A stretch of 64,000 bases of DNA from an uncultured Collinsella sp. (GCA_900541175.1 UQIT01000003.1:40133-104132); one strand, 5' to 3'. Positions 4,544 to 64,000 are shown, numbered from the stretch's first letter. The notes: generated from the letters alone by a model not told the origin. Program-made: numbers and translations.

Positions 4544-5938
4544 TTACTTCTTGCTCTCGGGCAAGACCAGATCCACGGCAGCGTCCTTGGCAGCATCGAT
4601 GTGCTGAGCCACGACCGGCGTCTGCGGAAGGATCAGGTTAAGGACAATGGCCATGATGGCGGTGGGGGTTACGGCATTGGAGCCGATGACGGTGGACACC
4701 CAGGCGGGCATACCCTCGCCGGCAAGGCAACCGCTGGCCATCCAGATACCCAGGCCAAAGACGACGGAGGTACCGACGATGGTGGTAGTGCGCTGCGTGA
4801 GGCCCTCGCGGGTGAACATGCGCACGCCGTTCATGGTGATGGTGCCAAAGACGCCGACGGTCGCGCCGCCGATGACGGGCTGCGGGATAGCGGAAAGGAC
4901 GGCAGAGAGCTGCGGGAACAGACCGGCGATGGCAAAGACGGCCGCGATGATCACAAAGACCCACTTGTTGACGACCTTGTTGGAGCAGATGATACCCACG
5001 TTCTGGCCAAGGGCGCTGGTGGGAAGACCGCCAAGCAGGCCGCCGACCATAGAGGTGAGGCCCTGGGACACGATAGCGCCGGAGAGCTCGCGCTCGGTGG
5101 GCATACGGTCGATGGAGCCAAGGCAGGCGGCGGAGACGTCACCGATAACCTGGATGGCAACCATGGGGAACACGACGGCGAGGGTAATGCAGACCTCGGG
5201 ATCAAACTCGAGCGCGTAGGGCATGAGCTTGGGAAGGGCGAAGACCTGAGCGGTGGCGACGCTGGAGAAGTCAATCATGCCAAAGGGGATGGAGACGATC
5301 ATGCCGACGATCATGCCAAAGAACACGGATCCCAGCTTGAGCGTGCCCTTGCCAAAGTTGGCGAGCGCAAAGACCACGGCGAAGGTGATAAGAGCGACGC
5401 ACCAGGCCTGCGGAGTGCCCCACAGCGGCGTACCCATACCGCCGGCCATGTACTTAACGGCCGTGGGATAGAGAGAGACGCCAATGGAGAAGATGACCGT
5501 ACCGGTCACGACAGGTGGGAACAGCCACTTGATCTTGCTGTAGGCCAGACCAAAGAGGACCGCGACGGCGCCGCCGACGATCTCGCCACCCAGCAGCGCA
5601 CCAAAGCTAAAGCCCGAGGCACCCATGGCCTGCAGGGCCGGCAGGAACGCGAACGAAACGCCCATGACGATGGGCAGGCCGCCGCCGATGCGACGGAAGG
5701 GAGCGAAGGCCTGAAGGGCCGTGTCGATCGCCGAAAGAATGAGCGCGACCTGAATGATATCGGTGCTCTGCTGGCTATTAAAGCCGTAGACGCCGGCCAT
5801 GATGACCGCCGGGGTAATGATACCGGCAAACGATGCCAGTACGTGCTGAAGGGCACACGGGATCATTTCCTTAACGGGAGGCATGCCTTCGCGAGTGAAC
5901 AGGGCTTCAGTGCCGTTCGTAACCGTCTCCTGGGTCAT
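4544..5938 (-). CDS. NCS2-family nucleobase:cation symporter (xanthine/uric acid permease-like).
   Basis: 464-aa polytopic membrane protein with NCS2 signature regions (QHVLASFAGIITP, GLPIVMGVSFAF). Its position next to ygfK-ssnA suggests a purine substrate. Confidence 0.8.
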   Translation of the reverse strand: MTQETVTNGTEALFTREGMPPVKEMIPCALQHVLASFAGIITPAVIMAGVYGFNSQQSTDIIQVALILSAIDTALQAFAPFRRIGGGLPIVMGVSFAFLPALQAMGASGFSFGALLGGEIVGGAVAVLFGLAYSKIKWLFPPVVTGTVIFSIGVSLYPTAVKYMAGGMGTPLWGTPQAWCVALITFAVVFALANFGKGTLKLGSVFFGMIVGMIVSIPFGMIDFSSVATAQVFALPKLMPYALEFDPEVCITLAVVFPMVAIQVIGDVSAACLGSIDRMPTERELSGAIVSQGLTSMVGGLLGGLPTSALGQNVGIICSNKVVNKWVFVIIAAVFAIAGLFPQLSAVLSAIPQPVIGGATVGVFGTITMNGVRMFTREGLTQRTTTIVGTSVVFGLGIWMASGCLAGEGMPAWVSTVIGSNAVTPTAIMAIVLNLILPQTPVVAQHIDAAKDAAVDLVLPESKK

Positions 5939-7737: not shown

Positions 7738-10233
7738 ATGACCGCAACCGCCAGTCGAACCACCAACCGCAGACCCGAGCTTTTGGCGCCCGCCGGAGGG
7801 CCCGAGCCCTTTGCCGCCGCACTCGCCGCCGGGGCAGACGCCATCTACTGCGGCATGGGCAGCTTCAACGCACGCCGCAAGGCCACCAACTTTACCGACG
7901 AGGCCTTTGAGCAGGCCTGCCGCGCCGCGCATCTGGCCGGCTCGCGCGTCTACGTCACGGTCAACATCGTCATCAAGGAATCCGAGATGAGCGATGCGCT
8001 GCAGCTCGTCCGTCGCTGCTCCACGCTGGGTGCCGACGCCTTCATCATCCAGGACTGGGGCCTGTTCTTTGAGGTCAAGCGCACCATGCCCGGCATCGAG
8101 ACGCATATCTCGACCCAGGCGAACATCCACGACGACCGCGGAACCCTTTGGTGCCGCGAGCAGGGCGCCGACCGCGTGACCCTCTCGCGCGAGCTTTCCA
8201 TCGACGAGATTGCCGCCATTCACGATGCCGCGCCCGATGTGGACCTTGAGGTCTTTAGCCATGGCGCCATCTGCTTTTGCTACTCTGGCCTGTGTCTGCT
8301 TTCGAGCTTTGCCATGGCGGGACGATCGGCCAACCGTGGCATGTGCGCCCAGCCCTGCCGCTTGCCCTACGAGCTGATCGACGAGAACGGTCGCGCGCTC
8401 TCCCCCGCCGGCCGCGAGCGTGCGCTATGCCCACGCGACACCAACACCTCACAGCTTGTTCGCCGCCTGTATGACGCCGGCGCCGCGTCGCTCAAGCTCG
8501 AGGGCCGCATGAAGGCGCCCGATTACGTGTACTCCATCGTCGATGTGTACCGTCACCAGATTGACGATATGCTGGCCGATGTTTCGACCTCCAAGGATGA
8601 GGATGCAGCCCGCCAGCGCCAGCTCAAGCGCTGCTTTAATCGCGACTTCACGCACGCCTACCAGAATGGCACCTCGGGCGACGAGATGATGAGCTACGAG
8701 CGCTCCAACAACCGCGGCCAGATTGTGGGCACGGTGCTGGGCAGCCGTCTGGCCAACCGCGATGTGCGCGGGCTCAAGCCCGACGATCGCCGTCGCCGCG
8801 CCGCCATCGCCCGCATTGAGCTGTTTGAGCCCGTTGGCAAGGGCGACCTGCTGGAGCTTCGCCACGATAACGAATTTGACCAGTTCCTGACCACCATTTC
8901 CGCCGATGATGCCGCCGCGGGCGACATCATCGAATGCCGCGTGCCCCGCAGCATGCCCGAGGGTTGCCGCGTCCGCGTGATTCGCAGTCAGCGTGCCATC
9001 GACGCCGCCGGCGCCGCGCTCAAGCGCGATGTGCTGCGCCGCCGAGCTGTTGACGTGTCCGTCGTGGCGCGCCTAGGCGAGCCATTTACTGTCACACTCA
9101 CCTGCTGTGACAACCCCGCGCTCACCGCCACCGCCACGGGCTTCACCGTCGAGGCCGCCAAGACCCGCGCCGTCGAGGCGGCAGACCTGGTTGAGCATGT
9201 GGGCCGCATGGGCTCCTCGCCCTTTGAAGCAGCGAGCTTTGATGTGGCACTCGATAAGGGCTGCGGTATGAGCTTTTCCGCCGTGCACAAGGTGCGCGCC
9301 GCCGCTTGTAAGGCGCTGGAAGAGGCCATTCTGGCACCGTACGAGGAGCGCGCGAAAACGCTCGAGCTGCCGGCGATTGTAACCAGTGATTCCCGCCCCG
9401 CGCCCGAGCACTACCGCGATGAGCCGCAGATCTGCGCCACCGTCACCTCGCTCGAGGCCGCCGAAGCCGCTCGCGCCGAGGGTGCAACGCGCATCTATAT
9501 GACCACCGATGCGCTCGAGGCCGCCGGTGTCTCCCCCGCCGATGCATTTGAGCAGGACATCGTACCCGTACTCGACGAGGTCTGCCGCGCCCTTGACCAC
9601 GTACGCGTCGATCCCTGGATCAATGCCGGAGCCACCGTCGCCGTCGGCAATATCTCCGAGCTCGCCGTAGCCGCGCATGCCGGCGCCACGGCCGAGATTC
9701 GCTCTTGCCTGCCGGTGCACAACACGCCCTGCATGGAGGCGCTTGCCGAGCGCGGAGCCGGTGCGTTTTGGCTCTCGCCCGAGATTACGCTCGACGAGAT
9801 TGTCTCGCTCGGCGCCGCCGCGCCCGCGGCTCTGGGCATCACCGTCTTTGGCCGCCCGCGCGTTATGACGAGCGAGCACTGCATCCTGCAGGTGGCCAAT
9901 GGCTGCATCCACGATTGCGCCAACTGCCGCCTGCGCGCCCGCAAGCTGTCGCTCAAGAATATCGACGGCAAGGTCATGCCCGTGCGCACCGACATCCATG
10001 GCCGCTCTCGCTTGTACGATGCCTACCCCATCGACCTTACGCCGCAGGTACCGCAGTTGCTCGACGCCGGCGTCCGTCGTCTTATGGTCGACGGAACCTT
10101 GTTCGAGGCCGATGAGATTGGTCGTGCCGTCGCTCGCGTCCGTCGCGCCGTCGAGGCAGCTCAAGCCGGCCGCAAGCCCGCCGCCCGTCTGCGCGGAGCA
10201 ACCTCGGGCTGCATGTTTGTGGGAATTAGCTAA
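7738..10233 (+). CDS. Large U32-family protein (peptidase U32 / collagenase-like; possibly an RlhA/TrhP-type RNA hydroxylase).
   Basis: 831 aa. The N-terminal U32 core carries conserved Cys residues (CFCYSGLCLLS ... CAQPCRLPYEL). RBS GAAAGGCAGG precedes the ATG. Adjacent to an RluA-family gene. Confidence 0.75.
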   Translation: MTATASRTTNRRPELLAPAGGPEPFAAALAAGADAIYCGMGSFNARRKATNFTDEAFEQACRAAHLAGSRVYVTVNIVIKESEMSDALQLVRRCSTLGADAFIIQDWGLFFEVKRTMPGIETHISTQANIHDDRGTLWCREQGADRVTLSRELSIDEIAAIHDAAPDVDLEVFSHGAICFCYSGLCLLSSFAMAGRSANRGMCAQPCRLPYELIDENGRALSPAGRERALCPRDTNTSQLVRRLYDAGAASLKLEGRMKAPDYVYSIVDVYRHQIDDMLADVSTSKDEDAARQRQLKRCFNRDFTHAYQNGTSGDEMMSYERSNNRGQIVGTVLGSRLANRDVRGLKPDDRRRRAAIARIELFEPVGKGDLLELRHDNEFDQFLTTISADDAAAGDIIECRVPRSMPEGCRVRVIRSQRAIDAAGAALKRDVLRRRAVDVSVVARLGEPFTVTLTCCDNPALTATATGFTVEAAKTRAVEAADLVEHVGRMGSSPFEAASFDVALDKGCGMSFSAVHKVRAAACKALEEAILAPYEERAKTLELPAIVTSDSRPAPEHYRDEPQICATVTSLEAAEAARAEGATRIYMTTDALEAAGVSPADAFEQDIVPVLDEVCRALDHVRVDPWINAGATVAVGNISELAVAAHAGATAEIRSCLPVHNTPCMEALAERGAGAFWLSPEITLDEIVSLGAAAPAALGITVFGRPRVMTSEHCILQVANGCIHDCANCRLRARKLSLKNIDGKVMPVRTDIHGRSRLYDAYPIDLTPQVPQLLDAGVRRLMVDGTLFEADEIGRAVARVRRAVEAAQAGRKPAARLRGATSGCMFVGIS

Positions 10234-13182: not shown

Positions 13183-13260
13183 CATTTAAGTCTGTCCCCA
13201 ATGAATGGTCCCCAATGAATGCCAAGCGACTTCCACTCATTTAAGTCTGTCCCCAATGAG
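13183..13260. repeat. Direct repeats TCATTTAAGTCTGTCCCCAATGA x2 with CCCCAATGAATG x2 in between.
   Basis: Exact 23-bp copies at 13183-13205 and 13237-13259. Confidence 0.7.
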
Positions 13261-17357: not shown

Positions 17358-17441
17358 TACAATCCCTTTCAATAGGAATCCGTTAGCCATCGCAGACAGG
17401 GATTCGAGGTTCTGCCTCGGGTGCGATGACACCGGACGTAT

Positions 17442-38877: not shown

Positions 38878-46854
<7,977 letters not shown>

Positions 46855-47086
46855 CAGGTTTTTCCTCCTTCACGGAAATGCTCGGTGGATTGGCGAGGCA
46901 TAGCTTCGCCAGTTATCGCAACCTAATAGTTTATCAGGTACCGACCGTTGAGCAAGAAAAGCCTTGACGTGATTGAGTTTTTGGAGTAGCAAAGTTTTTC
47001 GACAGAAAATTCGCAGGTAGATGTATGTGTATCGAACATCTGTTCATATATTTTCTGTGAACAGAGAACCAGCAATCGTAGCTCTT

Positions 47087-52331: not shown

Positions 52332-53708
52332 CTAGACCCTCAACAGATAGCGCACCTCGTAGGGCGCAAGCTCAAGAGAGCCCGCCAGCTCGACCGTGGG
52401 CACGCCGTCGGCAAGCAGGTCGACAAAGGACCCGTTGAGCTCGCCGGCGCCAAAGGTGTAAGGCTCGTTCACGGCGTTCACCGCCACGAGCACCGTCGCG
52501 TCGTCGCAGGTGCGCTCGAACAGCAGCTGCTTGTTCTGGATCACCACGTTGCGATAGGCACCGTAGTTGAGAGCACGGGCCGCCGCGTCGTCGGCTGCGC
52601 GCAGGTGCGTGAGCTGCTTGATGAAAGCCGTCAGCTCGTTGGGCGCAGGCTCATCGAGCGCAGGTCGCAGCGCCCAGTCGCCATCGGGGCCGCCCTTTTC
52701 GCCAGCAATTCCCCACTCGCTGCCATAGTAGACGCACGGGATGCCCGGCATGCCAAAGAGCATGCCATAGGCGGGACGCAGGCACGATTTGTCGGTAAGG
52801 ATGCTTGCCAGGCGCGGCACGTCGTGGTTGTCGACAAACGACAGCAGGTGCTTGCCGCGGTAGATGCACCAGGGGTCGCCGCCAAACTGACGGTGCAGCG
52901 AGTGCGCGATCTCGAACATATTGACCGAGTTAAAGCTAGAGTACAGGCCCTTGTAGCACTCGTAGTTGGTGCAGGAGTCGAGCATCTCGTCGTTGACGAT
53001 CTGGTTGTAGTCGCCGTGGAGCGTCTCGCCGATCAGCACGAAGTCGGGCTTGAGCTCGCGGGTAAAGGCATGTAGGCGGCGCATAAAGTCGCGGTCGAGC
53101 ATATAGGCGACGTCCAGACGCAGGCCGTCGACGCCAAAGACCTCGGCCCAGCGGCGCACGGACTCGAGCAGGTAATCGACCACGGCAGGGTTTTGCAAGT
53201 TGAGCTTCACGAGCTCAAAATGGCCTTCCCAGCCCTCGTACCAAAAGCCGTCGCCGTAGCAGGAGTCGCCGTCAAAGCTGATGTGGAACCAATCCTTGTA
53301 GGGCGAGTCCCACTTACGCTCCTGCACATCGCGGAAGGCCCAAAAGCCACGGCCCACATGGTTGAAGACCGCATCGAGTACCACGCGGATGCCGTGGGCG
53401 TGCAGCGTCTCGCATACGGCGGCAAAATCGGCATCCCCACCCAGGCGGCGGTCGATATGGCGCAGGCTACGCGTATCGTAGCCATGGCTATCAGACTCGA
53501 GCGGTGGGTTGATGAGCACGGCGCCAACGCCGAGTTCCTGCAGGTAGTCGGCCCATTGGGCGATTTTCATGATAGGAGCATCGGGGTTGGGCGCGGCGTT
53601 GGCAGCCTGGGCGAGCTCATCCTCGGCAACGGGCGCGGCGTTTTCGCGCGGAGCCCCGCAAAAGCCCAGCGGATAGATCTGATAGAACGTCGTCTCGTAT
53701 GCCCACAT
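52332..53708 (-). CDS. Glycoside hydrolase family 13 (alpha-amylase family) enzyme.
   Basis: Conserved regions GVDGLRLDVAYML, LIGETLHGD and FVDNHDVPR. ATG at 53708 has a GGGAGG RBS. Confidence 0.8.
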   Translation of the reverse strand: MWAYETTFYQIYPLGFCGAPRENAAPVAEDELAQAANAAPNPDAPIMKIAQWADYLQELGVGAVLINPPLESDSHGYDTRSLRHIDRRLGGDADFAAVCETLHAHGIRVVLDAVFNHVGRGFWAFRDVQERKWDSPYKDWFHISFDGDSCYGDGFWYEGWEGHFELVKLNLQNPAVVDYLLESVRRWAEVFGVDGLRLDVAYMLDRDFMRRLHAFTRELKPDFVLIGETLHGDYNQIVNDEMLDSCTNYECYKGLYSSFNSVNMFEIAHSLHRQFGGDPWCIYRGKHLLSFVDNHDVPRLASILTDKSCLRPAYGMLFGMPGIPCVYYGSEWGIAGEKGGPDGDWALRPALDEPAPNELTAFIKQLTHLRAADDAAARALNYGAYRNVVIQNKQLLFERTCDDATVLVAVNAVNEPYTFGAGELNGSFVDLLADGVPTVELAGSLELAPYEVRYLLRV

Positions 53709-60496: not shown

Positions 60497-62908
60497 CTAA
60501 GCCAATCCCAGCAATATGCCCGCCGAATGCACGACAAACGCCACGATCCAGGCGACCGTCACTTGAAATGCGAATACGGCCACGGCGTAGCGCGCGCCCA
60601 GCTCGCTCTTGACGGCGCCGATGGCAGCCACGCAGGGCGGATACAGCAGCGTGAAGACCAAAAACACGTAGGCGGTGAACGGCGAAAACATGGTCGACAA
60701 CACCGCAGGCGAGGTCGCGCCCAAAAGCACCGTGAGGGTCGAGATGACGCTCTCCTTGGCGATAAGTCCGGTGACGAGCGCCGTGGATGCACGCCAGTCG
60801 CCAAAGCCGAGCGGTGCCAGCGCCGGCGCGATAATGCTACCCAGACCGGCAAGTAGACTCTGCGACTGATCGGCGACCACATTAAAGCGAATGTCGAACG
60901 TCTGAAGGAACCAGATGACCACGGTAGCAGCAAAGATAATGGTAAAGGCTTTGGTAATAAAGTCTTTGGCCTTATCCCATGCCAGCATCACCGTCGTCTT
61001 GACGCTCGGCAGGCGGTAATTGGGAAGCTCCATGATAAACGGCACCGGGTCGCCTTTAAATGCCGTGCGGTTAAGCACCAAAGCCGCGATGCAACCAACC
61101 GCAATGCCAATCAGATAGAGCGAGACCATGGCGGGGACCGTCGCCTGCGGGAAGAATGCTCCGCACAGCAAGCCGTAAACCGGCAGCTTGGCCGAGCAGC
61201 TCATGAACGGCGTGAGCATGACGGTCATCTTGCGGTCGTGCTCGGATGGGAGCGTACGGGTCGACATGATAGCCGGCACGGTGCAGCCAAACCCGACGAG
61301 CATGGGCACAAAGCTGCGGCCCGAAAGGCCAAAGCGGCGAAGCACCTTATCCATGACAAAGGCAACACGCGCCATGTAGCCCGAGTCCTCCAGAATGGAG
61401 AGGAACAAAAAGAGCACGACGATAATCGGCAGGAAGGTCAGCACGCTGCCCACGCCCGTAAGCACGCCGTCGACAGCCAGCGAGCGCACTACGTCGTTGG
61501 TGCCGAACGCCTTGAGACCCGCATCGGCCGAGGCGATGATGGCAGCGATGCCGTCCTCCATAAGTCCCTGCAACGCCGCGCCGATCACGCCAAACGTCAG
61601 CCAAAAGACGAGACCCATGATCACCAGGAACGCCGGGATAGCCGTGTAGCGACCCGTCAGGATGCGGTCAATCTTGACGGAGCGCACGTGCTCGCGGCTC
61701 TCGTGCGGCTTGACGACGCAACGCCCGCACACGTCGCCGATAAAGCCGAAGCGCATGTCAGCCAGCGCAGATAGACGGTCGGTGCCGGCCTCGCCCTCCA
61801 TTTGGCTAATGATGTGCTCGATGGCGTCGAGCTCGTTGCGGTCCAGGTGAAGCGCCTCGGTCACCAGCTCGTCGCCCTCAACCAGCTTGGTCGCCGCAAA
61901 ACGCACGGGAATGTGCGCCGTCGCGGCATGGTCCTCGATAAGGTTGGCGATGCCGTGAATGCAGCGATGCAGCGCGCCGCCGTCCGGACCATCGGGCGCG
62001 CAGAAGTCCAGGCGACCGGGACGCTCGCGGAACCGCGCCACGTGCAAGGCATGATCCACCAACTCGCCAATACCCTCGTTGCGGGCAGCACTAATGGGAA
62101 CAACAGGCACGCCCAGCAGGCTCTCGAGCAGGTTGACGTCCACGGCGCCGCCGTTGGCGGTCACCTCGTCCATCATGTTGAGCGCGATGACCATAGGACG
62201 GTCAAGCTCCATGAGCTGCAGTGTCAGGTACAGGTTACGCTCGATGTTGGTGGCGTCAATGATGTCGATGATGGCGTCCGGGCGTTCGTCAAGGATGAAC
62301 TGACGGCTCACGACCTCTTCGCCTGTGTACGGCGACAGGGAGTAAATGCCGGGCAGGTCGGTAACGCTCGCCTCGGGATGGTTACGGATGGTGCCATCTT
62401 TGCGGTCGACCGTCACGCCGGGAAAGTTACCGACGTGCTGGTTGGAGCCCGTCAGCTGGTTGAATAACGTGGTCTTGCCGCAGTTTTGGTTGCCGGCGAG
62501 GGCAAAGTGCAGCGGCGCGCCCTCGGGCACGGCCGTCTTTGCCGCACGGGGCGAATACGTCCCCTCGCCCAGGGCCGGATGCTCCGTCGTGCCGATTGCG
62601 GCGTTAGCGCGCGGACCCGTATCGGTGTCGTGAATACCCACGAGCTCGATGCGAGCGGCATCGTCCTTGCGCAGTGTCAACTCGTAGCCACGCAGGCGGA
62701 TCTCGAGCGGATCGCCCATGGGGGCGTACTTCATCATGGTGACTTCGGTGCCCGGCGTTAGACCCATGTCCAAAATATGCTGTCGGAGTGCCTGATCGTC
62801 CGATGCCACCGATGCGACAACGGCGTCCTTTCCAATCTCGAGTGTATCGAGCCTCACGTCCGCGTTCCTCCCCCGGCGCCCACAGGGCGTTGTATTTATG
62901 TTCACCAT
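60497..62908 (-). CDS. feoAB: Ferrous iron transporter: FeoA domain fused to FeoB.
   Basis: N-terminal FeoA SH3-like domain (LDMGLTPGTEVTMMKYAPMGDPLEIRLRGYELTLRKDDAARIELV), a G-domain P-loop (GNQNCGKTTLFN) and a C-terminal gate region. ATG at 62908. Confidence 0.85.
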   Translation of the reverse strand: MVNINTTPCGRRGRNADVRLDTLEIGKDAVVASVASDDQALRQHILDMGLTPGTEVTMMKYAPMGDPLEIRLRGYELTLRKDDAARIELVGIHDTDTGPRANAAIGTTEHPALGEGTYSPRAAKTAVPEGAPLHFALAGNQNCGKTTLFNQLTGSNQHVGNFPGVTVDRKDGTIRNHPEASVTDLPGIYSLSPYTGEEVVSRQFILDERPDAIIDIIDATNIERNLYLTLQLMELDRPMVIALNMMDEVTANGGAVDVNLLESLLGVPVVPISAARNEGIGELVDHALHVARFRERPGRLDFCAPDGPDGGALHRCIHGIANLIEDHAATAHIPVRFAATKLVEGDELVTEALHLDRNELDAIEHIISQMEGEAGTDRLSALADMRFGFIGDVCGRCVVKPHESREHVRSVKIDRILTGRYTAIPAFLVIMGLVFWLTFGVIGAALQGLMEDGIAAIIASADAGLKAFGTNDVVRSLAVDGVLTGVGSVLTFLPIIVVLFLFLSILEDSGYMARVAFVMDKVLRRFGLSGRSFVPMLVGFGCTVPAIMSTRTLPSEHDRKMTVMLTPFMSCSAKLPVYGLLCGAFFPQATVPAMVSLYLIGIAVGCIAALVLNRTAFKGDPVPFIMELPNYRLPSVKTTVMLAWDKAKDFITKAFTIIFAATVVIWFLQTFDIRFNVVADQSQSLLAGLGSIIAPALAPLGFGDWRASTALVTGLIAKESVISTLTVLLGATSPAVLSTMFSPFTAYVFLVFTLLYPPCVAAIGAVKSELGARYAVAVFAFQVTVAWIVAFVVHSAGILLGLA

Positions 62909-62933
62909 GGCTAACCGTTTGCCATGGCTAACC
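62905..62933. promoter_or_regulatory. Direct repeat CCATGGCTAACC-gtttg-CCATGGCTAACC overlapping the feoAB start codon; possible metalloregulator box.
   Basis: Exact 12-mers at 62905-62916 and 62922-62933. GGCTAACC resembles a DtxR/IdeR iron-box half-site. Confidence 0.45.
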
Positions 62934-63030
62934 AATTTTAAGCTTACATGATAGCGTGAACACACAACGACGTTCAATCGACAGATCGGTGCAAGGGGAA
63001 TTCTGGGCCATTGCTTCCCAGACGGGCCTG

Positions 63031-63230
63031 TTGCGGAAACCGAATCCCACTCCGGAACACCTAAACGGGACGGGCTTTCCGGTTGAGGCATCTAGCGGAA
63101 ACTGCAGCCCGGAATCGGCGCTCAGACTGGGATGCGATTTCCCGATCGAGCCCCTCGGGGAAACTGCGACCCGGAATCTGCGCCCAAAACGGGTCACGAT
63201 TTCCCAAACGGGACGTGGTTTCCCGCGGGA
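63031..63230. repeat. Three imperfect tandem copies of a ~63-bp unit (GCGGAAACTGC..CCCGGAATC.GCGC....GGG....CGATTTCCC) upstream of feoAB.
   Basis: Units at about 63031-63095, 63096-63157 and 63158-63230. Each has internal dyad ends GGAAAC...GTTTCC / GATTTCCC. Confidence 0.6.
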
Positions 63231-63297
63231 GCAGAAACAGCCGCCCGCTCCCTCGACAAAATGATCCATTTTCCTCCGTCTCCAACAGATCAAAACG

Positions 63298-63364
63298 AAG
63301 TTGCGGTGGAATAGTTCCTGTTTAAAGCCCCGTGACTTTAATTGGAACTATTTCACCGCAAGTT
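63298..63364. repeat. Palindromic element D, copy 2.
   Basis: GAAGTTGCGGTGGAATAGTTCCTG ... GGAACTATTTCACCGCAAGTT. It lies 34 bp after the stop of the hydrolase gene. Confidence 0.7.
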
Positions 63365-63397
63365 ATGAGGGACGGGATGGGGCTGGCCCTCTTACTC

Positions 63398-64000
63398 TTA
63401 CAGATGGCGCTCCAGGAAGCGGAAGGCTAGGCGGATCCAGGGACGGACTGCCGCCTGCTTGTCCTCGTTGTCGACCGCGGTGTTGGCGTTGCCGAGCGAA
63501 AGGCCGTGACCACCCTGGTCGAAGACGTGCATCTCGCATGCAACGCCCTCCTCGGCCATGCGCTGCGCAAACGGGTAGACCTGCGCGATCGGCGCCGTCT
63601 TGTCGTCGGACACGCCCCACACAAAGGTCGGTGGCATCTGACGCGAAGCATGCGTGGTGGGGCAGATGTCGGCCAGATGCTCGTCAGTTGCCTCGCCGCC
63701 CGTCACCATCGACAGGTAGTCGTTGAGCAAATCGCGCCCCGTCTTGCCGCCCGTCTTGGGCACACGCAAGTCAATGCGCGGATCGCGCGTCTGCATGTCA
63801 CGCACATAGGCAAAGTCGAGCAATGGATAGCCCAGCACCACGGCATCGGGACGAATGTCGTCCGGACGCGCCCCGGCAAGTGCCGCGAAGGGGCCGGTCT
63901 TCCACTGTGTTGCCAGCGAGGCGCAAATCATGCCGCCAGCAGAAAAGCCCACGACGCACACGCGCTTAGGATCGACATGCCACTCGTCGGCGTTGGCGCG
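63398..64000 (-). CDS. Alpha/beta-hydrolase fold esterase (partial; N-terminus beyond the window end).
   Basis: Nucleophile elbow GFSAGG and a C-terminal HG motif (DQGGHGLS). Confidence 0.6.
   Translation of the reverse strand, partial: RANADEWHVDPKRVCVVGFSAGGMICASLATQWKTGPFAALAGARPDDIRPDAVVLGYPLLDFAYVRDMQTRDPRIDLRVPKTGGKTGRDLLNDYLSMVTGGEATDEHLADICPTTHASRQMPPTFVWGVSDDKTAPIAQVYPFAQRMAEEGVACEMHVFDQGGHGLSLGNANTAVDNEDKQAAVRPWIRLAFRFLERHL

Follow-up and report, generated by a model that had tools for sequence, protein, structure and literature searches.

Two abutting near-palindromic boxes at the predicted feoA-feoB promoter of Collinsella, and an interspersed 62-bp repeat upstream

Directly downstream of the predicted promoter of a feoA-feoB fusion gene in Collinsella, we found two abutting 17-bp near-palindromes whose arms are conserved among related loci and whose centres vary. 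These boxes are very likely a binding site for a regulator. On balance, we regard it as probable that they are two single-dimer operators of a metal-dependent repressor, and that a conspicuous 62-bp tandem array lying upstream is an unrelated repeat resembling REP/BIME elements. Bacteria resembling Collinsella aerofaciens abound in the human gut, and the Feo system is a major route by which bacteria take up ferrous iron. The DNA analyzed (hereafter, the window) is a stretch of 64,000 nucleotides from a C. aerofaciens-like gut actinobacterium, and we compared it with the feoAB loci of 80 Collinsella species representatives. Together with the window, these yield 34 distinct promoter variants; 70 of the 80 loci form group 1, and the remaining 10 (group 2) have a rebuilt promoter.

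The feoA-feoB gene and its start codon

A single open reading frame carries the FeoA, FeoB_N, FeoB_Cyto, two Gate and FeoB_C domains of Pfam, which confirms the gene fusion proposed in the initial annotation of this DNA (Table 1). That annotation had also placed the start codon inside the boxes, and here our results differ. The GTG codon at 62857-62855 is preceded by a GGAGG Shine-Dalgarno sequence with 9 nt between them, position 1 of the Pfam FeoA profile aligns exactly on it, and it is kept in 80/80 related loci. The ATG in the boxes (62908-62906) is in frame in only 22 of the 80 and lacks a Shine-Dalgarno sequence; the GTG with its GGAGG is universal. Public gene calls for FeoAB disagree: most give 786 aa, others 803, 812 or 815 aa. 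The 803-aa annotations correspond to a protein begun at the box ATG, and in that reading the FeoA and FeoB_N domains fall at positions 18-88 and 134-286. Since the box ATG is not the start codon, the boxes are non-coding. The use of the ATG of box 2 as an alternative start, which those 803-aa annotations would favor, belongs with the RNA-level reading discussed below; given the in-frame counts and the universal GTG, we consider both very improbable.

The gene upstream encodes an esterase-like alpha/beta-hydrolase, lies on the same strand as feoAB and is cut by the end of the window. The hairpin that follows it gave an Rfam miRNA match far below the gathering score, which we regard as spurious.

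Table 1. Features of the feoAB promoter region and its neighborhood (window coordinates)
Feature	Coordinates	Strand	Remarks
feoA-feoB fusion gene	60497..62857	minus	786 aa; GTG start
Shine-Dalgarno region GGGGGAGGAA	62865..62874	minus	GGAGG core, 9 nt before GTG; kept in 70/70 group-1 loci
Small GC stem-loop ACGCCC-TGT-GGGCG	62876..62890	minus	5' leader, between boxes and Shine-Dalgarno sequence
Box 2, promoter-distal	62900..62916	minus	GGTTAGCC-AT-GGTGAAC; TTAGC-N4-GTGAA; putative single-dimer-type palindromic operator
Box 1, promoter-proximal	62917..62933	minus	GGTTAGCC-AT-GGCAAAC; TTAGC-N4-GCAAA; about +9 to +25; putative single-dimer-type palindromic operator
-10 hexamer TATCAT	62948..62953	minus	promoter scan; 78/80 loci, TATGAT in the other two
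-35 hexamer TTGAAC	62972..62977	minus	promoter scan; 18-nt spacer to -10; invariant in the 70 group-1 loci
Array of interspersed 62-bp repeat	63005..63232		about 3.7 units
Array, partial unit	63005-63034
Array, full units	63035-63096, 63097-63158, 63159-63220
Array, 19-bp internal duplication			extends the array to 63232
Long hairpin, 28-nt arms, then CGTTTTGAT	63298..63364	minus	likely terminator of the upstream alpha/beta-hydrolase gene
Alpha/beta-hydrolase (esterase-like) gene, 3' part	63398..64000	minus	Pfam Abhydrolase_3, Peptidase_S9

Anatomy and conservation of the boxes

The sequence CCATGGCTAACC occurs in exactly two copies on the plus strand (62905-62916 and 62922-62933) with GTTTG between them, just as initially annotated. 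In full, the repeated units measure 17 nt (GTTCACCATGGCTAACC and GTTTGCCATGGCTAACC), are identical at 15 of 17 positions and abut on the minus strand (62933-62917 and 62916-62900). Both units are near-palindromes in their own right, with CCATGG at the centre, and the earlier description of a direct repeat rather than a palindrome does not hold. Exact 12-mers repeated within 30 bp are found at four places in the window, versus 0.15 expected from 100 dinucleotide shuffles, and the degenerate palindrome GTTWGCCATGGCWAAC has four window matches with at most three mismatches, versus 0.52 expected. Two matches to this palindrome were set aside as chance: one at 17382-17397 (2 mismatches), within the rplB open reading frame as listed and upstream of its likely ATG, and another at 53477 (3 mismatches), overlapping long open reading frames on both strands.

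There are 14 nt between the end of the predicted sigma-70-like promoter, TTGAAC-18-TATCAT, and box 1, and the promoter is conserved in the related loci. Box 1 begins 12-15 nt past the -10 hexamer in all of them, and both boxes span approximately +9 to +41 relative to the predicted transcription start. They overlap the region that RNA polymerase occupies on this conserved, predicted promoter (-35 to about +20), a position suited to a repressor operator.

Across the 34 variants, little or no change is seen in T-GGTTAGCC, GGCAAAC-G-GTTAGCC and the final AAC, and the box centres and both flanks depart from the consensus in 20-45% of variants. In box 2, no variant departs from the left arm or from the AAC of the right arm, and the central 4-6 nt vary freely (ATGG, AAGG, AAGA, AAGT, TTGG, ATAG). 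Box 1 is nearly invariant, even in the 10 loci with a rebuilt promoter. These group-2 loci have a different leader, with 48 instead of 75/76 nt to the start codon, and they keep two boxes in the 17-bp register (GGTTAGCCCCGGTAAAC and GGTTAACCGCGTCTAAC). The GC stem-loop of the 5' leader, present in group 1, is deleted in all 10 and is thus dispensable. One locus (L062) carries three boxes. The comparison genomes all come from one narrow clade (C. aerofaciens), with FeoAB proteins 98-100% identical, and therefore part of the conservation of the boxes could reflect short divergence time, although their flanks do vary.

This pattern bears on two explanations other than a protein binding site. The boxes could be a functionless 17-bp tandem duplication that arose recently by slippage, as the locus with three units and the three other short exact tandem duplications in the window might suggest. 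Nevertheless, both units are kept in 80/80 loci, diverged promoters included, and the arm-specific pattern of substitution is not expected of a neutral copy; we regard this as the least credible of the explanations considered. Alternatively, the boxes could act as RNA, their copies pairing (GUUAGCCAUGGC with GCCAUGGUGAAC) into a 12-bp leader hairpin that affects translation or stability. They do lie downstream of the predicted transcription start, and 85.5% of the cells of the proposed helix are paired across variants, but column shuffles give 84.7%, so that the pairing is no better than in the shuffles. In 9-13 of the 34 variants, pairs are lost through changes at the centre of box 2, with no compensation in box 1, and the dyad symmetry inside each unit points instead to a dimer on double-stranded DNA. 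This RNA-level reading has, in our view, a very small chance of being correct.

Likeness of the boxes to metalloregulator sites

The initial annotation had pointed to a resemblance with a DtxR/IdeR half-site, and the resemblance holds up on closer inspection. The DtxR consensus TTAGGTTAGCCTAACCTAA contains GGTTAGCC as an exact 8-mer (PMC7762939). Moreover, one IdeR dimer reads two inverted CCTAA pentamers 4 bp apart, which in the 19-mer are repeats 1+3 or 2+4; a half site of this kind, suited to one dimer, can be bound by IdeR on its own (PMC8464063). The boxes have the same layout, with inverted TTAGS/SCTAA-type pentamers separated by a 4-bp gap, conserved arms and a free N4: compared with TTAGS-N4-SCTAA, box 1 (TTAGC-CATG-GCAAA) matches at 9/10 positions and box 2 (TTAGC-CATG-GTGAA) at 8/10. 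This 5-4-5 geometry matches the site of one IdeR/DtxR dimer, and we therefore interpret the two boxes as neighboring operators, each for a single dimer of a metal-dependent repressor. Like the iron box of Actinobacteria, they are GC-rich and stand at the promoter of a metal-uptake gene.

The boxes differ from the canonical iron box in their arrangement. There, four CCTAA-type pentamers form 9-bp arms around a single central base, giving two interdigitated dimer sites offset by 5 bp within 19 bp and on opposite faces; in Collinsella, the one-dimer sites lie side by side with an offset of 17 bp, the distance between arms exceeds that of the 19-mer by 4-5 bp, and the right-arm pentamers are GCAAA and GTGAA instead of CCTAA. 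Indeed, the canonical 19-bp iron box TTAGGTTAGSCTAACCTAA finds its best match in the promoter and leader at only 12/19, in the left arm alone (ATTGGTTAGCCATGGCAAA), a score equalled by 11 of 400 random window segments.

The boxes also compare with MntR-type operators of the DtxR family, whose 5-4-5 geometry they have. Enterobacterial MntR sites have the form AACATAGC-N4-GCTATGTT (PMC1698941), and the boxes share with operators of this type the core TAGC-N4-GC.A with a free 4-bp centre (PMC1698941; bioRxiv 10.1101/2024.02.12.579695). Such operators, for example those of D. radiodurans DR2539, hold one dimer per palindrome of about 16-21 bp, as we propose for the boxes. Nonetheless, the outer positions of the boxes differ, and they come in two, rarely three, abutting copies; the match to the E. 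coli MntR box (9/16) is at chance level. The boxes are predicted to regulate Feo and not the MntH or Sit transporter of MntR systems, which leaves the metal uncertain.

The Fur box shares with the boxes their expected function, metal-dependent repression of an iron-uptake promoter by occlusion, and the central GGCAAAC-G-GTTAGCC has the same 7-1-7 format. In sequence, however, the likeness does not exceed chance, as judged from random window segments (GATAATGATAATCATTATC, 10/19; 7-1-7 form TGATAATnATTATCA, 9/14). Palindromes of 16 bp or of 5-4-5 type with free centres are common to many dimeric helix-turn-helix families, and thus geometry alone does not fix the family. The boxes may accordingly be the operator of a regulator outside the DtxR family, either of the Fur family or a Crp/Fnr-, GntR-, TetR- or MarR-type dimer, with manganese, redox state or oxygen as a conceivable signal. 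In favor of this are the low score with the canonical DtxR 19-mer, the free-centre 16-bp palindromes known from so many families, and the 7-1-7 format of what is also the most conserved stretch. Moreover, searches by tblastn with sequences of C. diphtheriae DtxR and of B. subtilis MntR and Fur returned no homologue in the window, the 80 loci or 120 metagenome loci. Against it, similarity to the Fur, PerR and Zur consensus is that of chance, and the combination of the GGTTAGCC 8-mer with the TTAGC-N4 geometry is common to IdeR, DtxR and MntR sites. The composition of the boxes, too, is GC-rich as in DtxR-type sites and unlike the AT-rich Fur sites (PMC7762939). We consider a regulator outside the DtxR family unlikely, although by no means negligible. 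A search of the literature on Collinsella with feoB or DtxR found nothing relevant.

We infer repression by the box sites, as well as the family and metal of the regulator. In the single-dimer operator reading that we prefer, the boxes would be bound by a helix-turn-helix repressor acting as a dimer, most probably a metal sensor of the DtxR/IdeR/MntR family charged with Fe2+ (or Mn2+), with one dimer on each box, side by side. The bound repressor would occlude RNA polymerase or block promoter escape; metal limitation would free it, and the FeoAB ferrous-iron transporter would then be switched on. No further box motif was detected in the window, in the 10-kb flanks of the 80 loci or in 0.9 Mb of additional Collinsella-like DNA, a sample that includes no other metal-uptake promoter. 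A single box has about 12-15 fixed bases, for which hundreds of chance matches are expected in about 10^12 bases, and looser patterns would be swamped by feoAB promoters.

The 62-bp array and implications for Collinsella

The tandem array upstream of the promoter is real and contains three full units, as first described, although with a period of 62 rather than 63 bp. The dyad ends noted at the time (GGAAAC...TTTCC) are likewise present: each unit consists of a 46-nt imperfect palindrome with arms GGAAAC..CCC / GGG..GTTTCC and a 16-nt linker. The 14-nt arms alternate in orientation, with spacers of 18 and 16 nt. They recur about every 31 bp, and the GGAAA, CCC, GGG and TTTCC blocks are conserved approximately one helical turn apart. 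The units are merely 65-76% identical, which explains why TRF misses the array even at score 30; run on the whole window at this score, it reports neither boxes nor array. The array folds well (z = -5.1 on the minus strand, -2.95 on the plus strand). We nevertheless rejected a structured RNA, as compensatory changes are lacking: among 311 distinct units, Watson-Crick pairing in the stem interior does not exceed the expectation under independence (mutual information 0.02-0.04 bit). An Rfam scan of 62500-63600 on both strands (E <= 10) returned only sub-threshold miRNA and snoRNA noise, with no match to the array. A CRISPR-like array was rejected since similarity runs through the whole unit with no unique spacers, and a coding repeat since 62 bp is not a multiple of three.

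By nhmmer and regular-expression scans, arrays lie upstream of feoAB in about 32 of the 80 loci (approximately 40%), with 2-4 units where present, and are absent from the other 60% or so of otherwise conserved feoAB promoters. The spacer ranges from about 70 to 420 bp, and the suggestion of a hypervariable element is supported by this comparison of copy number across related loci. A second array site lies about 10.5 kb downstream of the feoAB start in related loci, and in two loci (L027 and L062) arrays flank both sides of a gene inserted between the esterase gene and feoAB. The family is present in at least 120 metagenome stretches, nearly all of which are labelled as human gut or agree with that origin, and two or three separate arrays occur on some contigs. 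Among 129 arrays in the matches listed, we distinguished at least 23 flank contexts, and three of these arrays are at feoAB; the other neighbors are functionally unrelated, among them a Na/H exchanger, a short-chain dehydrogenase, a ClC channel, a histidine kinase and a flavodoxin gene. The arrays are intergenic, mostly by the 3' ends of genes (25 convergent, 17 tandem and 5 divergent among 47 crude calls).

Such a distribution does not bear out the view of the array as clustered metalloregulator sites of feoAB: the family occupies at least 23 other intergenic contexts, and the conserved feoAB promoter module, which begins only about 25 bp upstream of the -35 hexamer, excludes it. More broadly, the array could be a functional upstream module of feoAB, in which a regulator or nucleoid protein would bind clustered sites and copy number would tune expression. 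The blocks one helical turn apart and the arm repeat of about 31 bp do resemble phased protein-binding sites, only about 25 bp separate the array from the -35 hexamer, and it has two to four copies at this site. Weighed against the many feoAB promoters that lack an array, the unrelated genes that the same family adjoins, mostly at their 3' ends, and the absence of any sequence relation to the boxes, we think such a role improbable. The array could still have a local effect on feoAB, through curvature, insulation from read-through or protein binding.

As judged from its sequence and distribution, the array is a REP/BIME-like interspersed extragenic repeat of Collinsella, outside the conserved feoAB control region; its place in the hypervariable spacer that separates the upstream gene from the feoAB promoter would be incidental. 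REP elements are GC-rich palindromes of 20-40 bp, tagged at one end with GTAG or CGTC and linked to RAYT transposases (PMC3733652, PMC2817692), and in BIMEs they are regularly spaced in alternating orientation (PMC2817692). The array resembles them in its many extragenic copies, regular spacing and alternating orientation, as well as in its preference for 3' ends, variable copy number and presence or absence by strain. It departs from them in that its palindrome has 46 nt, begins with GGAAAC and bears neither GTAG nor CGTC, and in that the single 14-nt arm is not itself palindromic; the host is a Coriobacteriia actinobacterium. No RAYT or other transposase-like gene was found beside the arrays examined. 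Mycobacterial VNTRs of MIRU type and pneumococcal BOX elements are also head-to-tail units of 40-100 bp, dispersed between genes and variable in number among strains, and MIRUs often carry small overlapping ORFs that link adjacent genes. The array is similar to these in unit size, head-to-tail layout, intergenic dispersal and variable copy number, with no sequence relation to them; unlike MIRUs, it has a period that is not a multiple of three and dyad-symmetric units. In the literature on repeat families of Collinsella and Coriobacteriia, we found no described family.

We put forward, tentatively and as a possibility that falls well short of probable, that the boxes could represent an undescribed operator layout for a DtxR-like metal sensor in gut Coriobacteriia, with one-dimer sites set side by side in a 17-bp register where the iron box interdigitates them within 19 bp, two or three copies depending on the strain, and a dedicated or very small regulon centred on FeoAB. 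Separately, and as part of the same tentative proposal, the 62-bp arrays could be an undescribed BIME-like family of Collinsella, whose phased GGAAA-N6-CCC arms would be recognized by a protein and whose positions would be hot spots for rearrangement between genes and for gene insertion. The gene inserted between arrays in L027 and L062 supports arrays as such hot spots.

The start codon of this FeoAB is corrected here where public annotations differ. The results also advise caution: repeats that stand out next to a regulated promoter may be no more than generic interspersed elements. The 62-bp repeats, apparently an undescribed Collinsella family, help to explain the variability of the feoAB intergenic spacer and could serve in strain typing. 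The box motif may be used to find the regulator and its regulon, and a defined operator would provide a handle on iron sensing by these bacteria in the gut lumen, for instance when iron is supplemented orally.

Start codon and leader of feoAB

The initial annotation had described a feoA-feoB fusion whose start codon lay within a repeated box. The fusion itself is confirmed by its Pfam domains, and the source organism is Collinsella aerofaciens-like, with a FeoAB 98-100% identical to proteins labelled "Collinsella sp." or "C. aerofaciens". The start codon lies outside the box: the Pfam FeoA profile and conservation both place it at GTG 62857. An in-frame ATG is present at 62908-62906, without a ribosome-binding site, and counting from that ATG, position 1 of the FeoA profile falls on residue 18, precisely at the GTG codon. 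This GTG and the GGAGG preceding it are found in 80/80 related loci (the feoAB loci of 80 Collinsella species representatives). The codon 51 nt upstream of it is ATG in only 22 of the 80; substitutions (AAG, TTG) and a 1-nt difference in leader length account for the others. Public annotations accordingly give FeoAB inconsistent start calls and lengths (786, 803, 812 and 815 aa). The 803-aa version in RefSeq-named entries, starting at the ATG within box 2 (window 60497-62908), is probably a wrong call.

Features upstream of feoAB, in the sense of the gene (window positions)
Feature	Position	Remarks
Alpha/beta-hydrolase gene stop	63398	same strand as feoAB
Long hairpin with short T-run	63364-63298	28-nt arms; likely terminator of hydrolase gene
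Spacer, ~65 nt		between hairpin and array
Repeat array	63232-63005	
-35, TTGAAC	62977-62972	promoter-like; promoter scan
Spacer, -35 to -10		18 nt
-10, TATCAT	62953-62948	promoter-like; promoter scan
Spacer, -10 to box 1		14 nt
Box 1, GGTTAGCCATGGCAAAC	62933-62917	minus strand
Box 2, GGTTAGCCATGGTGAAC	62916-62900	minus strand
Small GC stem-loop	62874-62892	between box 2 and GGGGGAGGAA
GGGGGAGGAA		between GC stem-loop and GTG
feoA-feoB fusion, start GTG	62857	minus strand

The small GC stem-loop of the leader scores as terminator-like on the plus strand, that is, antisense to feoAB. The sequence of the hydrolase-gene hairpin directly abuts an array in several loci; an Rfam match of this hairpin (63298-63364) to a microRNA is spurious (32 bits versus a gathering score of 83). 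Elsewhere in the window, a very long ORF of 2629 aa occupies 39037-46926 on the plus strand.

Two abutting palindromic boxes at the feoAB promoter

The repeat reported at this promoter is real, the 12-mer CCATGGCTAACC being present in exactly two copies, 17 bp apart. Exact 12-mers recurring within 30 bp occur at 4 places in the window, versus 0.15 expected in shuffles. The three other exact short duplications, tandem or near-tandem, are a 12-bp sequence repeated twice (5294-5317), a 14-bp sequence repeated twice (13194-13221) and a 12-mer that recurs 27 bp further on (about 44995); the first and third overlap long ORFs, and the second falls between listed ORFs. The description of the boxes as a direct repeat rather than a palindrome does not hold: both 17-bp units are near-palindromes centred on CCATGG, and the element thus consists of two tandem palindromes.

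In the 80 loci, we compared the 130 nt that precede the start. In 70 of them (group 1) the promoter is the same as in the window, with box 1 reading GGTTAGCC[A/G]TGGCAAAC and box 2 reading GGTTAGCC plus a variable tetranucleotide (ATGG, AAGG, AAGA, AAGT, TTGG, ATAG or ATGT) plus [T/C][G/A/T]AAC. The remaining 10 loci (group 2) have a rebuilt promoter and a different leader, with only 48 nt from box 1 to the start; they keep two boxes in the 17-bp register, GGTTA[G/A]CCCCGGTAAAC and GGTTAACCGCGTCTAAC. The GC stem-loop of the leader is kept in the group 1 loci and deleted in those of group 2. Group 2 also carries, between the upstream gene and feoAB, an extra 107-aa ORF (MLEGTYVVLAQTPVGSKRGEVTF...) that has a good Shine-Dalgarno sequence but matches no Pfam family (L030:5838-6158; also in L011, L021, L024, L026, L029, L037, L060, L064 and L070).

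The 34 distinct variants show little or no change in the arms T-GGTTAGCC and GGCAAAC-G-GTTAGCC or in the final AAC, while the box centres and both flanks deviate from the consensus in 20-45%. Constant arms flanking an unconstrained centre are characteristic of sites at which a dimeric protein reads two major grooves. In every locus the boxes start 12-15 nt past the -10, at about +9, inside the polymerase footprint, where repressor sites lie. Judging from this pattern and placement, the boxes would quite probably be the operator of a dimeric repressor. An RNA hairpin formed between the two copies was tested for and received no support: its pairing is no better than in shuffles, and changes in the box 2 centre break pairs in 9-13 of the 34 variants, with no compensation. 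One representative locus, L062, has three boxes (9908-9960; GGTTAGCCATGGCAAAC twice, then GGTTAGCCATAGCAAAC), the others two, and so the copy number of the putative operator differs between lineages.

As to the regulator, the proposed resemblance to DtxR/IdeR sites is meaningful in the GGTTAGCC 8-mer and in the pentamer layout; it fails for the canonical iron box, of which the best match is 12/19, in one arm. GGTTAGCC matches eight consecutive bases of the DtxR consensus exactly (PMC7762939). In IdeR-DNA structures each subunit recognises a single CCTAA pentamer and a dimer covers repeats 1+3 or 2+4 (inverted pentamers 4 bp apart); IdeR also binds a one-dimer half site by itself (PMC8464063). 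The boxes would be two single-dimer sites of DtxR type, abutting at a 17-bp offset, because each has the one-dimer layout (TTAGC-CATG-GCAAA and TTAGC-CATG-GTGAA). In the classical 19-bp iron box, two sites interdigitate at an offset of 5 bp, whereas the Collinsella boxes lie side by side. Enterobacterial MntR sites, AACATAGC-N4-GCTATGTT (PMC1698941), share the layout of the boxes. The E. coli MntR consensus was rejected for the boxes, as were, by consensus comparison, Fur, PerR and Zur box identities. We infer the DtxR family only tentatively, as a possibility at somewhat short of even chances; that the gene is feo is the sole ground for considering iron a more likely metal than manganese. We found no DtxR, MntR or Fur homologue in the window, the 80 loci and 0.9 Mb of other Collinsella-like DNA, and the box motif at no other promoter there. 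An operator with an unusual tandem layout is a credible reading of this sequence.

An interspersed repeat family upstream of feoAB

The tandem array noted upstream of the promoter is also real, with a period of 62 bp and not 63. Its units are only 65-76% identical to one another, and it goes unreported by TRF. A unit comprises a 46-nt imperfect palindrome, GGAAAC-N6-CCC...GGG-N6-GTTTCC, with an 18-nt centre, and then a linker of 16 nt. It can alternatively be viewed as 14-nt arms whose orientation alternates approximately every 31 bp, a BIME-type layout (PMC2817692).

The conserved feoAB module begins only ~25 bp upstream of the -35. The spacer between it and the upstream gene is hypervariable, about 70-420 bp across loci, and differs in terminators, other short repeats, the upstream gene (some loci) and an inserted gene (two loci). 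The array is present there in ~32 of the 80 loci, with a variable copy number of 2-4 units. Spacers lacking it (L014, L033, L048, L003 and L065) carry 2-3 copies of a ~27-bp tandem repeat, GCCGGCACTTGGGGACGTTCCTTTTGT, ~60-130 nt upstream of the feoAB -35; many spacers with this repeat use a different terminator hairpin, GTTACGGCGTTTTACCAAACGCCGTAAC. The inserted gene (L027:8357-9589, L062:8247-9515) separates the esterase gene from feoAB, is on the opposite strand and encodes a zinc-ribbon protein of 410-422 aa, probably membrane-anchored. Arrays lie on both sides of it, which suggests that they mark insertion or recombination sites. In four loci (L004, L030, L035 and L080) the family is also found ~10.5 kb downstream of the feoAB start.

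We scanned a metagenome collection with a pattern comprising the full 62-nt unit and the 5' arm of the next (approximately one and a quarter units), and at least 120 stretches contained it, with GC of 0.47-0.65. Nearly all the matches listed are labelled as, or consistent with, human gut; among them the arrays have ~2-9 units, some contigs carry two or three separate arrays, and the flanks represent at least 23 contexts, with only three arrays at feoAB. Neighbouring genes among these matches include a Na/H exchanger, a short-chain dehydrogenase, a ClC channel, a histidine kinase, a xanthine-dehydrogenase-like protein, a flavodoxin and a DUF234 ATPase, which have no relation to iron or to one another. 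On several metagenome stretches (L095:546-4683, L112, L146, L172, L179 and L186), 2-3 arrays of up to about 540 bp (~9 units) lie within 2-5 kb and bracket single genes, in L095 the DUF234 ATPase gene. The proposal that the array is a cluster of iron-regulator sites is contradicted by this family's occurrence next to many unrelated genes; the array has no specific connection with iron, being an interspersed repeat of a generic kind.

Folding of the array is much stronger than that of shuffled sequences (z = -5.1 for the sense strand, -2.95 for the other). Across 311 distinct units, interior stem positions vary independently, with Watson-Crick counts not above expectation and mutual information of 0.02-0.04 bit, and a separate analysis agrees; the hairpin itself is thus not under detectable selection. 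The sequence blocks are what is retained, their constancy being partly by construction since the search pattern fixes the outer and inner blocks, and this fits protein recognition or a mechanism of spread. By crude gene calls, 47 arrays among the matches listed lie between 25 convergent, 17 tandem and 5 divergent gene pairs, the same preference for gene 3' ends as REP elements. The unit lacks the classical REP palindrome of 20-40 bp tagged with GTAG or CGTC, and no RAYT gene was found near the arrays examined. We file the array as REP/BIME-like in behaviour and not as a member of the REP/BIME family. We found no description of such a repeat family in Collinsella in the literature; the array adds a new case to a class of bacterial repeats that is well known.
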